Assembly: GCA_036494495.1 (NCBI GenBank)
Contig: DASXOF010000133.1
Location: 3,315-67,314, forward strand
Length of the DNA stretch: 64,000 bases
Origin: Solirubrobacterales bacterium
Lineage (GTDB): Bacteria; Actinomycetota; Thermoleophilia; Solirubrobacterales; 70-9
Direction of reading: 5' to 3'
Of this stretch, positions 11,435 to 19,789 are shown in pieces. The position numbers and the translations under genes are program-made. Position 1 is the first letter of the stretch; each line of letters starts with the position of its first letter. Below the pieces are notes generated by a model, which saw only the letters and a program-made list of their open reading frames with translations, was not told where the DNA came from and searched no databases.

Positions 11435-12796
11435 TCAACCTGACTCCGCCGTCACTGCAAGTCGCTCCCCGGCGAGCTCCGGCAGCAGCGGCTGCAGGAC
11501 CCGGTTGGCGGTCAGCCCGAGGCAGCCGAGGTTGGCGAACCCCGGCCCCTGGCTGAGGCCGCCGAGGCCGGGGATGTGAAGTCGCGGCGAGAGGCCGCGC
11601 AGCTCCAGCGCCCGGCCGATCGGGACCTCGGTCCCCGGCGGCGTGTCCCAGACCTGACCGGCCTCGCGCTCGACCACGGCCCGGACCTCGTCGGAGAAGA
11701 GGCTGCGCAGCTGCGCCAGCAGGTCGAAGCCGGTGCAGTTGACGACGTAGTCGAACTCGGCCGCCACCACCCCGCCCGGCGCCTCGTACTCGAGGCTGAG
11801 CGCCTCACCGCTCGCGGCGAGGCCGGCGTGGAGGGCGCGGCCGACCTCGAACGAGGAGTGCCCGTCGCCCGACAGCGAGGCGATCACGCCGGCGTCGAAG
11901 ACGCCGCGGTCGGCGTGCTTGACGAAGTCGCGGCGGGCCTGCTGGTCGAGCCGTTCCCAGCTGACGTCGTCGGGGTCGGCGAAGACCCGGTTCTCGAGGA
12001 AGCTCTCGCCGCGGCTCATCGGCAGGAGCGGCGTGAAGACGGTGAGACTTGCGAGCGGCCGGAAGGCGCGGAGGAAGACGAGGGCGCTGAGGGCGCTCTC
12101 GCCGCCGCCGAGGATCGCGATCTCGACCTCCTCGTCCTCGGCGATGCCGGCGAACTCCGAGCGGCGGCTGTCGCAGTGGAAGAGCCGCGGCGCCGCCGCC
12201 GGGTCGTGCGGCAGGGCGCGGTGGACGCCCGGGCCGGTCAGCAGCAGGGCGCCGCCGACGTGGCGCTCGGGGTCGTCGGGCTGGCCGCGCTCGGTCACCG
12301 CGATCGCCCAACGCTCGGGGTCGTCTTCGATCGTCACCGACTCGACCCGGCCGTGCAGCAGCCGCACCCCCTCGGTTGCGCGCTCGAGCACCCAGCTCAG
12401 ATAGGCGCCGTAGTCGCGGTGGCGGACCGAGGGCGCGCCGGAGTTGACCCAGCCGGCGTACTCGCCGCGTTCGATCGCGTAGCGCTGCCAGCTGAACGGC
12501 AGGAGCGCCGCGTCGATCGCGTCGCCGGCGGCGCCGAACTGCCGGTAGCTGCGGTACGGGAAGCCGACGTCCTTGATCGGCGGGATCGCCAGCGGCTCCT
12601 CGCCGGAGGTCATCCCGTTGCGGCCGAGCCAGGACGCGGCGGGCTCGGTTTTCTCGACGATCGTCAGCGTCAGCTGGCCGAGGCCGAGCCGGTTGACGAC
12701 GTGGACCTTGGCGGCGATCGCCGCCGCCTTGGCGCCGGCGCCGACAATCAGGAGGTCGGCTTCCGGCGGCGCCTCCGTCTGGCTTGCGGTGCTCAT
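11435..12796 (-). CDS. FAD/NAD(P)-binding monooxygenase (lysine/ornithine N-monooxygenase-like, tentative)
   Basis: Two dinucleotide-fold motifs are present (LLIVGAGAKAAA and IAILGGGESALSA). ATG 12796 overlaps the P450 stop (ATGA). Confidence 0.6.
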   Translation of the reverse strand: MSTASQTEAPPEADLLIVGAGAKAAAIAAKVHVVNRLGLGQLTLTIVEKTEPAASWLGRNGMTSGEEPLAIPPIKDVGFPYRSYRQFGAAGDAIDAALLPFSWQRYAIERGEYAGWVNSGAPSVRHRDYGAYLSWVLERATEGVRLLHGRVESVTIEDDPERWAIAVTERGQPDDPERHVGGALLLTGPGVHRALPHDPAAAPRLFHCDSRRSEFAGIAEDEEVEIAILGGGESALSALVFLRAFRPLASLTVFTPLLPMSRGESFLENRVFADPDDVSWERLDQQARRDFVKHADRGVFDAGVIASLSGDGHSSFEVGRALHAGLAASGEALSLEYEAPGGVVAAEFDYVVNCTGFDLLAQLRSLFSDEVRAVVEREAGQVWDTPPGTEVPIGRALELRGLSPRLHIPGLGGLSQGPGFANLGCLGLTANRVLQPLLPELAGERLAVTAESG

Positions 12797-14085
12797 CAGG
12801 CGACCGGTTCGGCGATCACCAGGCCGCGCCTGGCGGGCGCGAAGGAGATCGCGGATTTCTTGATCGCCTCGCCGCGCCGCTCGGCCGGTTCGAGGCGGAC
12901 GCTCGCGAGCACCGTGCGGATCACCCGCTTCATCTCCATTTCCGCGTAGGAGGCGGCGAGGCAGCGGCGGACGCCGCCGCCGAAGGGGATCCAGGTGTAG
13001 GTGCCGGGCGGCGTCGCGAGGAAGCGCTCGGGGAGGAAGCGGAGCGGTTCGGCATAGTTCGCCGGGTCGCGGTGGACGAGGTGGATGCAGGGCGCGACCG
13101 TGGTCCCCGCCGGCAGCTCGCGGCCGGCCAGCCGCAGCGGCGCCAGCAGCCGGCGGACCACCACCGGCACCGGCGGCCGCAGCCGCAGCGTCTCCTTGAT
13201 CACCGCGTCGAGGTAGGCGTCGCCCTCGCCCGCCAGCACCTCCTCGCGGGTCCGGGCGAGCACGTCGGGGTTGCGCAGCAGCCGCTCGAAGGCCCAGGCG
13301 AGGGTGCTCGAGGTCGGGCCGTCGGAGAGCAGCGTCACCAGTTCGTCGCGCAGGTCGCGCTCGCTCATCGGCGAGCCGTCCTCGTAGCGGGCGCGGACCA
13401 GCATCGAGACCACGTCGCGGGGCTCCTCCTCGGGCTCGGCGCGGCGGCGGCGCGCCTCGGCGATCACCGCTTCCTCGACCGGCCGCATCGCCTCCCGGTA
13501 GCCGCGGCTGCGGGTCATCGCGCCGGGGCCGAAGGCGGCGAGCAGGGCGAGGTTGCGGGGGCTGTTGAGCCAGGCGGTGAGGCGGCGCAGGCGCTCGCGC
13601 AGGCCGTCGAGGCGGCGGTTCTCGCCGGAGCCGAAGACCGCCCGCATCACCACCTCCTGGGTGATCTCCTGCATCCGCGGCCAGAGCTCGAACGGCTCCC
13701 CCACCGGCCAGCGCTCGACTTCCTGCCGCGCCACCGTCGCCATCATCTCGGCGTCGGCCTGGACCGCGCCGCCGTGGAAGGAGGGCAGCATCAGCTTGCG
13801 CCGCTGCAGGTGCTCGGGTTCTTCCATCAGCATCACCGAGCGCGGGCCGAGGACCGGCCCCAGCAGCGGGTTGGCGAGGTCGACGCCGACCGCCTCGCCG
13901 GCGGTGAAGACGGCTTTGACGTCGGCCGGGTCGCTGAGGATCACCCAGTCGCCCCAGTGCATGATCCGCAGCGTGAAGGCGTCGCCGTACCGCCTGTGGC
14001 AGCGCTCCAGATAGGGCAGCGGCCGTTGCGTCCAGGCGACCGCCTGCATCGCCCGCGGCAGCCGCGGGCCGGGTGGCATGCTCAC
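12796..14085 (-). CDS. cytochrome P450
   Basis: The heme-thiolate loop is FGGGVRRCLAASYA and the ExxR motif is in KETLRLRPP. GTG 14085 overlaps the upstream stop; the alternative start is ATG 14079. Confidence 0.9.
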   Translation of the reverse strand: MSMPPGPRLPRAMQAVAWTQRPLPYLERCHRRYGDAFTLRIMHWGDWVILSDPADVKAVFTAGEAVGVDLANPLLGPVLGPRSVMLMEEPEHLQRRKLMLPSFHGGAVQADAEMMATVARQEVERWPVGEPFELWPRMQEITQEVVMRAVFGSGENRRLDGLRERLRRLTAWLNSPRNLALLAAFGPGAMTRSRGYREAMRPVEEAVIAEARRRRAEPEEEPRDVVSMLVRARYEDGSPMSERDLRDELVTLLSDGPTSSTLAWAFERLLRNPDVLARTREEVLAGEGDAYLDAVIKETLRLRPPVPVVVRRLLAPLRLAGRELPAGTTVAPCIHLVHRDPANYAEPLRFLPERFLATPPGTYTWIPFGGGVRRCLAASYAEMEMKRVIRTVLASVRLEPAERRGEAIKKSAISFAPARRGLVIAEPVA

Positions 14086-14405
14086 GCCGCCCGCTCCCGG
14101 CCCAGCCGGCGTTCGCGCTCGAGCCGGTCCATCAGCTCGTCCTCGGCCCGGCAGGTGGCGGCGATCAGCAGCTCGAAGAGGTTGGCGGTGAAGTCCGCCG
14201 GCAGCTCGACCGCGGCGCCGCGGTCGAGGTAGCGCCGGCGCACGACCTCGACCCGGTCGGGCTGCATCATCGCGATCTCGTGCTCGCTCTTGTAGACGGC
14301 GACTTCGCGGCAGATCTGGAAGCGCTCGCCGAGCAGGCGGGCGACCTCCTCGTCGATCACGTCGAGGCGGTCGCGGAACGGCTGCAGGCCGCCGGTCTCG
14401 CTCAT
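14082..14405 (-). CDS. AroQ-class chorismate mutase-like protein (candidate 4-amino-4-deoxychorismate mutase)
   Basis: The 107-aa product reads MSETGGLQPFRDRLDVIDEEVARLLGERFQICREVAVYKSEH...QPDRVEVV. ATG 14405 overlaps the upstream stop. Confidence 0.75.
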   Translation of the reverse strand: MSETGGLQPFRDRLDVIDEEVARLLGERFQICREVAVYKSEHEIAMMQPDRVEVVRRRYLDRGAAVELPADFTANLFELLIAATCRAEDELMDRLERERRLGRERAA

Positions 14406-19693: not shown

Positions 19694-19716
19694 CCCCCAA
19701 GGGCTCCGCTCGGAGA

Positions 19717-19789
19717 TGCACCGGCCGGGGCTCGAACCCGGATCTACGGCTTACAACGCCGTCCCTTTAACCGATTAAGGCACCGGTGC
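19717..19789 (-). tRNA. tRNA-Thr (anticodon UGU), 73 nt, CCA not encoded
   Basis: I folded the cloverleaf manually. The acceptor stem is GCACCGG/CCGGTGC and the D arm is CCTT-AATCGGTTA-AAGG. The anticodon arm is ACGGC-GTTGTAA-GCCGT. The T arm is CCGGG-TTCGAGC-CCCGG and the discriminator is A. Confidence 0.8.

Follow-up and report, generated by a model that had tools for sequence, protein, structure and literature searches.

The 64,000-nucleotide (nt) stretch of DNA that we analysed in full and refer to as the window (contig DASXOF010000133.1, positions 3,315–67,314, Solirubrobacterales bacterium GCA_036494495.1) contains on its minus strand an operon in which an atypical transfer RNA (tRNA) gene stands ahead of seven overlapping coding sequences (CDS) and a lipoprotein gene, the first of those CDS encoding a class I ligase that resembles an arginyl-tRNA synthetase (ArgRS). 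The gene set suggests a small-metabolite pathway that depends on tRNA and has yet to be described, and we consider it fairly probable that the array constitutes one conserved transcription unit for a non-ribosomal pathway of that kind, headed by a dedicated ligase/tRNA pair. The evidence that carries this reading comprises the family-level functions of the genes, their synteny in related genomes, the co-inheritance of the tRNA with the ligase gene, the loss from the ligase of residues presumed to bind arginine, and the retention in the same genomes of canonical tRNAs that decode the same codons.

Operon structure and conservation

The host genome, that of an uncultured Solirubrobacterales-type actinobacterium, amounts to 3.37 Mb in 200 contigs, the contig of the window being 68 kb long and the G+C content of the window about 73%. 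An earlier reading of this DNA, made without database searches and referred to below as the sequence-only reading, had placed a tRNA gene 23 nt ahead of seven minus-strand CDS, which layout was borne out: ARAGORN detected only one tRNA across the window, at 19717–19789 on the minus strand, and the ATG of gene 1 lies at 19693, leaving a spacer of 23 nt. The same reading had every junction between the CDS overlapping by 4 nt, as is indeed the case at five of the junctions (ATGA or GTGA), whereas that of genes 6 and 7 is a TGATG with an overlap of 1 nt; a GGAGG-like stretch lies upstream of each junction. In order from gene 1 to gene 7, the operon encodes the ArgRS-like ligase, a fused PabA-PabB aminodeoxychorismate (ADC) synthase, a GNAT N-acetyltransferase, a Zn amidohydrolase with the histone deacetylase (HDAC) fold, an AroQ-class enzyme with the chorismate mutase (CM) fold, a cytochrome P450, and a flavin N-hydroxylase, the earlier family assignments having all been confirmed by Pfam and NCBIfam. 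As had also been noted, gene 8, encoding a lipoprotein with a PQQ-repeat beta-propeller, begins 19 nt after gene 7, with a strong Shine–Dalgarno sequence, GGAGGA, ahead of it. The G+C content at third codon positions (0.95–0.98 in all seven open reading frames) is a strong coding signal, as in the real genes of the host genome. A sequence scan of the minus strand revealed no terminator-like site inside the operon, and a strict sigma-70 scan yielded no promoter. In one soil metatranscriptome library, contigs 85–92% similar to the stretch, and therefore from relatives, covered all bins and bridged the junctions of genes 7 and 6 and of genes 6 and 5; in run X24 the last bin, containing the tRNA and the upstream region, had low cover, and contigs of this sort cannot reveal transcript ends.

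Two long contigs, with gene 1 at 78% and 70% identity, carry all eight genes in an unchanged order, and a scan of species-representative genomes yielded 80 loci at 55–84% identity, almost all labelled as metagenome-assembled genomes of Solirubrobacterales. The synteny that the sequence-only reading had expected of relatives was found by tblastn in every related locus of sufficient length, the order of genes 1–8 being identical, gene 8 always coming next after the seven, and no extra gene being inserted in any of them. The translationally coupled, syntenic operon is thereby confirmed as a genuine, conserved unit. To describe its distribution we sampled 301 genomes of the order, from 80 genera, and found an ortholog in three of these genera: the window's own (genus g1), in which 8/8 genomes carry the operon; a second genus of the same family (g17), with 11 carriers among 13 genomes; and one genus of another family (g45), with the operon in all nine genomes listed. 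Since the operon is near-universal in these three genera and was not found in the remaining 77 sampled, we regard it as an accessory unit that is stably retained where present. A census of genera with a PF13434-neighbour test was uninformative on linkage, its lowest score band being swamped by canonical ArgRS and few true carriers having been tried. Directly upstream of the tRNA in the window lies an amino-acid-type ABC transporter (20029–22341, minus strand; binding protein, permease, and ATPase), which upstream genes are common to only the nearer clade of operon carriers.

The private tRNA

The host genome has 58 tRNAs, including canonical tRNA-Thr genes with the anticodons UGU, GGU, and CGU, all three outside the window and that with UGU on contig C167. 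These three genes share a common frame, with a GCC.. acceptor, a TAGCTCA..GGTAGAGCAC D arm, and a U73 discriminator. The 73-nt tRNA of the window, for its part, has the anticodon UGU, an acceptor stem GCACCGG, a D stem CCUU/AAGG, a G32, a variable loop of four bases, and A73 instead of U73. A housekeeping tRNA-Thr isoacceptor is accordingly ruled out, because the frame differs throughout and a canonical UGU decoder is present elsewhere. The CCA end is not encoded, as is also true of 46 of the 58 tRNAs of the genome. In a simple global alignment the nearest canonical tRNA of the genome was the tRNA-Lys(UUU), with a score of 27 versus at most 17 for all the others, and the Arg-type anticodons CCU and UCU occur among the distant partner RNAs described below; arginine and lysine are both candidates for the ancestry of this tRNA.

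The linkage to the ligase gene is nearly constant. In 78 of the 84 loci the tRNA precedes the ArgRS-like gene by 19–49 nt and shares its strand; a copy in locus L011, divergent from the gene, raises the ARAGORN count to 79/84, and in L078 and L094 the tRNA is relocated between genes 5 and 6 on the opposite strand, for an overall 81/84. Two orthologous copies, from L004 and L005, scored 65.3 and 63.9 bits with Rfam RF00005 (threshold 29). The cloverleaf, when evaluated on 21 distinct copies, was paired in 98.6% of the cells, and compensatory changes were seen in 10 of the 21 base pairs, which values were reached by none of 500 shuffles and were likewise far from those of slid controls. Pairs 2–5 of the acceptor stem are invariant across the copies, A73 is nearly so, and the eight-gene clade keeps a complete cloverleaf with the canonical G18G19, TΨC loop, U33, and A37. 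The structure of the tRNA is under selection, and the tRNA is co-inherited with the ArgRS-like gene. The sequence-only reading, in treating it as an ordinary leader gene, missed a component that is atypical and probably key to the mechanism; the operon, the paralogy of gene 1, and the ADC synthase of that reading did stand, so that its interpretation was supported in part.

The anticodon is UGU in the window's clade and UAA in a second group that likewise carries the eight genes, which UAA tRNA is not a real tRNA-Leu because its 73-nt body lacks the long arm; in L011, whose ligase is a 49% paralog, the anticodon is UAG. On a maximum-likelihood tree of gene 1, UGU and UAA were exchanged at least two to three times, with the eight genes unchanged. 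Because a canonical tRNA with the same anticodon is retained in 10/10 closed genomes—a normal long-arm tRNA-Leu(UAA) in all five of the UAA type, a normal tRNA-Thr(UGU) in all five of the UGU type—the special tRNA is always supernumerary. The corresponding codons are among the rarest (per 1000: ACA, 0.21; UUA, 0.05; CUA, 0.43), and every anticodon of the eight-gene clade matches one of these rarest codons, which pattern might reflect a selection that keeps a non-translational and possibly mischarged tRNA off the codons that matter.

The ArgRS-like ligase

Gene 1 (18008–19693, minus strand; 561 aa) is a true ArgRS paralog, as had been proposed, the canonical argS being located elsewhere in the genome, on contig C110, with 417.9 bits on TIGR00456. 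Gene 1 itself has a weak match to Pfam tRNA-synt_1d, reaches 84.5 bits on TIGR00456, under the equivalog cut-off of 261.65, and shares about 21% identity with the canonical ArgRS of the genome. Its AlphaFold2 model (pLDDT 88.7, pTM 0.91) was matched by Foldseek to ArgRS structures at full length in all the top 20 matches, with a TM of 0.73 to the yeast ArgRS–tRNA-Arg complex (1f7u_A), MshC and CysRS structures being the next-best; this full-length match indicates that the N-terminal and anticodon-binding domains are retained. Matches in the ESM Atlas were only to 'hypothetical protein' or ArgRS clusters.

The HIGH motif (H124-I-G-H127) and the preceding K121 are conserved. In an alignment with the genome's ArgRS and 1iq0, the Glu located five residues before a conserved Asn has become Y113, and in the canonical DGxxTYLTxD segment the Tyr and Asp have become Q321 and A325, inside a family-wide DGxPTQHLR motif. 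These Glu, Tyr, and Asp residues correspond to those that bind the guanidinium group in the yeast ArgRS–arginine structures; the Glu/Asp are replaced throughout the paralog family. With the HIGH motif, the Lys, and the fold kept, and the acidic residues replaced, the sequence and the model make gene 1 look catalytically competent and tRNA-binding, and not arginine-specific.

Distant relatives of the pair

Some 190 representative clusters match gene 1 at E < 1e-30, in varied gene contexts. L011 has the ArgRS-like gene along with HDAC and flavin-dependent monooxygenase (FMO) genes, and L014 (37% identity to gene 1) has it along with an FMO gene, the NbtG-like FMO being present without PabAB in both loci. 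In L012 (9525–15423; 43%) the ArgRS-like gene heads an operon with a phosphopantetheinyl transferase, an adenylation–thiolation (A-T) didomain, a guanidinoacetate-N-methyltransferase-like gene, and a GNAT, and beside it, divergently oriented, is a tRNA-like RNA whose D arm is reduced and whose anticodon is CCU. In L095 (3173–7071; 37%) a LeuRS-like gene, whose 703-aa product has editing and anticodon domains, shows translational coupling to the ArgRS-like gene, and a 66-nt tRNA-like RNA ends at its start. In L097 (3360–14099; 35%) PabAB, an Aminotran_4::GNAT fusion, HDAC, and CM_2 genes are convergent with the ArgRS-like gene, with in addition a methyltransferase and an asparagine-synthase-like gene, from which context it follows that the ADC/GNAT/HDAC/AroQ module travels with ArgRS-like enzymes in a distant lineage as well. 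Two recurrent modules thus emerge: an ArgRS-like enzyme with an N-hydroxylase, and an ArgRS-like enzyme with PabAB, GNAT, HDAC, and AroQ.

With a covariance model of the atypical tRNA, the ArgRS-like genes of L012, L010, L095, and L097 were each found to have a tRNA-like RNA next to them, at 30–46 bits, a score that is nonspecific in that ordinary tRNAs reach 40–70 bits, the argument residing in the placement. The anticodon loops of these RNAs read CCU, UCU, UAC, and CUU, and some of the RNAs have a shortened D arm, because of which ARAGORN misses them. Of the distant paralog loci, all five that have sufficient flank show a tRNA-like RNA next to the ArgRS-like gene; and since there is about one tRNA per 58 kb (58 in 3.4 Mb), a neighbour within 1–2 kb in every distant locus is not a matter of chance. 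When metagenomes were scanned for the pattern of the distant tRNA-like RNA, two loci came up; one of them (L118) repeats the arrangement of L012, and in the other the RNA lies at a contig edge with an unreadable neighbour.

The locus L010, on contig C169, belongs to the host genome itself and holds a third ArgRS-type gene (36% identity to gene 1). A truncated LeuRS/MetRS-like gene (7682–9538, minus strand) is there divergent from the ArgRS-like gene (9584–11296, plus strand), beyond which lie a 77-nt tRNA-like RNA (11318–11394, minus strand) with the loop CUUCUAA (UCU) and the alpha and beta genes of a lysine 5,6-aminomutase (11804–14045, plus strand); this locus looks like a second, different system of a paralog of an aminoacyl-tRNA synthetase (aaRS) and a tRNA-like RNA. 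Three further observations concern other RNAs. L011 contains a ZMP/ZTP riboswitch (13924–14006, plus strand; 58.7 bits versus a gathering threshold of 39), situated after the ArgRS-like, HDAC, and FMO genes and before Aminotran_5 and serA-like genes. Just past the 3' end of dnaE on contig C117 (26570–26644; L101), ARAGORN predicted a 75-nt short-arm 'tRNA-Ser' with the anticodon ACU and no adjoining aaRS paralog, and on contigs C7, C90, and C184 it predicted three unusually long tRNA-Arg, of 86–99 nt.

The other enzymes of the operon

Gene 2 (15852–18011, minus strand) matches Pfam GATase, at the N-terminus (residues 4–187), Anth_synt_I_N, and Chorismate_bind; it scores 365.7 bits on TIGR00553, over the cut-off of 328.4, and contains PIKGT at 515–519, whose lysine (K517) we take to be the residue separating PabB from TrpE. 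Its identification as an ADC synthase is thus upheld. Elsewhere the genome encodes TrpE/G and a second PabAB, the latter at 50% identity and close to an Aminotran_4 gene, so that the PabAB of the operon is an extra, dedicated copy. Near that housekeeping PabAB, on contig C143 (L107, 2409–5387, minus strand), a 992-aa protein with 12 matches to collagen triple-helix repeats is encoded.

Gene 3 (15382–15855, minus strand; 157 aa) matches Acetyltransf_1 at E 2e-15, has the acetyl-CoA motif R-x-x-G-x-G/A in the form RSRGIGA, and gave a single match to a GNAT in the Protein Data Bank (PDB). Gene 4 (14402–15385, minus strand) matches Hist_deacetyl (E 3e-38, 132 bits), with all of the HDAC catalytic motifs PPGHHA, DLDLH, GYD, and EGGY and with acetylpolyamine amidohydrolases, to which type we assign it, as the best PDB matches. 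Gene 5 (14082–14405, minus strand) matches CM_2 (E 4e-17, 62.6 bits), and its best NCBIfam match is the mixed 'CM-like' subfamily TIGR01803, at 49.2 bits and thus below the cut-off of 73.35. Aligned without gaps to the E. coli CM (1ecm), it keeps R11, R28, K39, and R51, with E52 replaced by V and Q88 by E; judged by these residues it could be either a PapB-like ADC mutase or a PchB-like ADC-pyruvate lyase. Gene 6 (12796–14085, minus strand) matches Pfam p450 at E 2e-54 and has six paralogs elsewhere in the genome, and no close solved homologue was found for it in the PDB at E 1e-30.

Gene 7 (11435–12796, minus strand), a single-copy gene in the genome, matches Lys_Orn_oxgnase/NAD_binding_9, and its only PDB match, 4d7e, is the L-Lys monooxygenase NbtG, over the full length (residues 14–436, E 1.8e-60); two GxGxxA dinucleotide motifs, GAGAKA and GGGESA, are present. 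The sequence-only reading had it as a two-Rossmann flavin monooxygenase, of which the flavoenzyme remains, to be described more exactly as NbtG/MbtG-like and akin to the lysine N6-hydroxylases. At the level of family, its sequence makes gene 7 a lysine/ornithine N-monooxygenase of the NbtG/MbtG type, which assignment moves the likely chemistry toward a hydroxylamine, hydroxamate, or N–N logic. Gene 8 (9850–11415, minus strand) matches PQQ and PQQ_2 and has the lipobox AFAAGC followed by a Gly/Ser linker.

Among the operon proteins Pfam detected no cupin, Fem-type transferase, cyclodipeptide synthase (CDPS), nonribosomal peptide synthetase (NRPS), polyketide synthase (PKS), ATP-grasp enzyme, or PapC, in agreement with what had been remarked of the last four. 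None of the eight genes encodes a PapC-type dehydrogenase or an aminotransferase, TyrA/PapC not having been searched for in the rest of the genome.

The proposed pathway

We infer from this gene set the charging of the tRNA by the ligase, the amino acid used, the order of the steps, and the product, as follows. The private tRNA would have no role in normal decoding. The ligase would most likely esterify an amino acid other than arginine onto that tRNA or, alternatively, might need it as an obligatory activator for the activation of the amino acid, in the way that a true ArgRS requires tRNA to activate its own (PMC2034488). The substrate that we favour would be the neutral product of gene 7, an N-hydroxylated basic amino acid, which compound would fit a pocket that has lost its acidic residues; an amino acid derived from ADC would be the other option. 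PabAB and the AroQ enzyme would supply an aromatic or cyclohexadienyl amine from chorismate, either 4-amino-4-deoxyprephenate or p-aminobenzoate. The activated carboxyl might then be attacked by an amine or a hydroxylamine: an intramolecular attack would give a cyclic hydroxamate, and one involving the arylamine or cyclohexadienylamine derived from ADC would lead to an amide or an O-acyl hydroxylamine or, through rearrangement, to an N–N bond. The GNAT would add, and the HDAC-type enzyme remove, an N-acetyl group, and the P450 might oxidise, couple, or tailor. The sequence-only reading had suggested as a candidate product an aromatic amine condensed with an amino acid, with an N-acetyl intermediate on the way. 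The product would probably be a hydroxamate or a conjugate containing an N–O or N–N bond, acting outside the cell, where the co-inherited lipoprotein sits.

Several points weigh against this proposal. Its weakest point is the missing obvious consumer of aminoacyl-tRNA: with no enzyme of the Fem/MprF, L/F-transferase, or CDPS type in the operon, that step has no candidate enzyme, and the acetyl-CoA motif of the GNAT is an ordinary one. The binding or charging of the tRNA by the ligase is predicted from sequence and a structural model. Only five columns of the enzyme switch with the anticodon (207, 297, 313, 336, and 445), mostly conservatively, and none of the columns of gene 1 follows the anticodon switch convincingly. 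The UGU-clade tRNA has G1-C72, C2-G71, G35, and U36, which we take to be identity elements of ThrRS, so that a housekeeping synthetase might charge it; and a full cloverleaf with an intact G18G19 and TΨC loop would suit ribosomal use too. Finally, the RNA evidence, consisting of relatives' contigs from one soil RNA library in which DNA carry-over is possible, is weak.

Alternative explanations

The best-surviving alternative, which we hold to be improbable and nevertheless worth keeping in view, is a ligase that works independently of charging, in the manner of MshC or the MetRS-like domain of the hydrazine synthetases, passing the acyl-adenylate directly to an amine or hydroxylamine, with the tRNA as an allosteric activator or as the substrate of a housekeeping synthetase, which would charge it for a different purpose. 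The operon lacks an aminoacyl-tRNA transferase, MshC and CysRS are the next-best fold matches, the pairing of an FMO with an aaRS paralog agrees with the logic of the hydrazine synthetases (PMC2922099, PMC12376268), and a true ArgRS needs tRNA merely for the activation of its amino acid (PMC2034488). This account leaves aside the full retention of both the N- and the C-terminal tRNA-binding domains and the persistence by the gene, across a deep divergence, of a tRNA so constrained in its acceptor stem and discriminator; moreover, the operon has no cupin partner.

A pyl-like expansion of the code, or a deliberate mistranslation, in which a nonstandard amino acid (or arginine) on the special tRNA would be inserted at ACA, UUA, or CUA, strikes us as unlikely. 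The order of tRNA gene, aaRS paralog, and biosynthetic genes mirrors that of pylTSBCD, the cloverleaf in the eight-gene clade is complete in all the features listed above, and the anticodons all match the rarest codons. In addition, in the operon genes of L015–L094, ACA is 4.6-fold rarer in the UGU than in the UAA loci (0.25 versus 1.15 per 1000, on small counts and uncontrolled for G+C), as against 1.5- to 3-fold differences for other rare A-ending codons and a UUA frequency of 0.03 per 1000 in both. The codons themselves, however, argue to the contrary. The window's operon contains no ACA, UUA, or CUA, and in a survey of 234,610 aligned codons from the related loci no conserved site for any of the three was found in the operon genes or in gene 8. 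In UGU-type genomes, on the other hand, ACA occurs at invariant Thr columns, for example column 353 of gene 1 (Thr in 81/84) and column 170 of the P450 (62/62). Also against this explanation are the retention of the canonical decoders in the closed genomes, the repeated anticodon switches with the operon unchanged, and the reduced D arms of the distant tRNA-like RNAs, which would make unlikely substrates for the ribosome. Recoding of ACA or UUA is therefore unlikely. A milder form, to which we give still less credence, would be an ambiguity of sense codons, a chorismate-derived or N-hydroxylated amino acid being inserted at a low level or only in certain conditions, the target being ACA in one clade and UUA in another.

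That gene 1 might be a self-resistance copy of ArgRS, protecting the producer from a cluster product that inhibits ArgRS, with the tRNA incidental, appears very unlikely. Duplicated aaRS genes do serve, in the case of mupirocin, indolmycin, and borrelidin, as resistance devices in antibiotic clusters. Natural inhibitors of ArgRS exist as well (bioRxiv 10.64898/2025.12.02.691738). A resistant ArgRS is nevertheless hard to reconcile with a score so far under the ArgRS cut-off, an identity so low to the genome's own enzyme, the family-wide replacement of the guanidinium-binding Glu/Asp, and the occurrence of the family in quite different gene contexts, and it would leave the co-inherited atypical tRNA unexplained. 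As for a chance adjacency of an ordinary tRNA-Thr, such as an island integration site, to an unrelated cluster, the general frequency of tRNA genes at the flanks of genomic islands and the variable flank of the operon, with its transporter genes kept only in the nearer clade, give it hardly any weight, this explanation being effectively refuted by a tRNA that by sequence is not a tRNA-Thr, by its linkage in 81/84 loci in spite of differing flanks or relocation, and by a tRNA-like RNA in all five distant loci with flank, versus about 3% expected per 2-kb neighbourhood.

Comparison with known systems

Two precedents come nearest. One is a family of MetRS paralogs strictly tied to lysine N6-monooxygenases, identified by prediction (PMC2922099) and later characterised as hydrazine synthetases (PMC12376268); the other is the route of valanimycin, with its SerRS paralog (PMC9379638, PMC4052509). 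The hydrazine synthetases (see also PMC10445470) share with our operon the linkage of a class I aaRS paralog to an N-hydroxylase of the NbtG/MbtG type and, as we propose here, the joining of an activated amino acid to a hydroxylamine. They differ in being derived from MetRS and having a cupin, whereas here the ligase derives from ArgRS, no operon protein has a cupin, and the operon adds a co-inherited tRNA gene and an ADC synthase plus AroQ module. In the valanimycin pathway, VlmH is a flavin N-hydroxylase, VlmL a SerRS paralog, and VlmA an aminoacyl-tRNA transferase. There, and as we propose here too, a cluster-encoded aaRS paralog supplies aminoacyl-tRNA to a hydroxylamine made enzymatically; VlmL, however, charges the normal tRNA-Ser, the cluster not being known to have a tRNA gene of its own, and the transferase there is of the Fem type, which is lacking in our operon.

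Four other systems have partial likenesses. The pylT-pylS-pylBCD unit also places a tRNA gene, a dedicated aaRS-type gene, and biosynthetic genes together, but with a unique suppressor anticodon and recoded genes, whereas here the anticodon duplicates that of a canonical tRNA and varies between clades and no recoded site was found. PapA, PapB, and PapC of the chloramphenicol and pristinamycin pathways resemble our fused PabAB and AroQ-fold enzyme, a possible ADC mutase; yet none of our loci has in the operon a PapC-type dehydrogenase, an aminotransferase, or an NRPS, and the AroQ enzyme here could instead be a PchB-like lyase giving p-aminobenzoate. In mycothiol synthesis, MshC, MshB, and MshD similarly bring together an aaRS paralog of class I, a deacetylase, and a GNAT to act on a small amine-bearing molecule, although MshC descends from CysRS and works independently of tRNA, the deacetylase is an LmbE-family enzyme, and no tRNA gene is known to belong to that system. 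ProRSx and tRNAProX of Streptomyces likewise have an extra aaRS paralog beside an anomalous tRNA whose anticodon is mismatched to its identity; that pair, however, stands alone and has been proposed to cause mistranslation, whereas ours heads a six-enzyme operon and ACA still means Thr.

In the open-access literature that we searched, a limited body and hence a weak negative, we found no ArgRS-derived biosynthetic enzyme, no cluster-encoded private tRNA of this kind, and no such gene set, so that the sequence-only reading's failure to recognise a characterised cluster was repeated there. A 2010 survey of the part played in non-ribosomal synthesis by proteins that resemble class I aaRSs described the MetRS paralog and no ArgRS paralog.

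Significance

The aaRS paralogs and aminoacyl-tRNAs known from natural products borrow the cell's own tRNAs or go without tRNA. What is new here is a diverged ArgRS-like family that is accompanied at one locus after another by a tRNA gene of its own, with the anticodon of that private tRNA drifting among the rarest codons and its D arm decaying in the distant relatives. If the pathway proposed is correct, the pair would be an RNA-based counterpart of the adenylation domain and carrier protein of the NRPSs, as well as a ready-made orthogonal aaRS/tRNA pair for an amino acid other than arginine, and it would provide a handle for finding similar clusters, which genome-mining tools probably miss. 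Because the operon occurs in nearly all the sampled members of three genera of the abundant, uncultured Solirubrobacterales of the soil, its product may also be of ecological importance.

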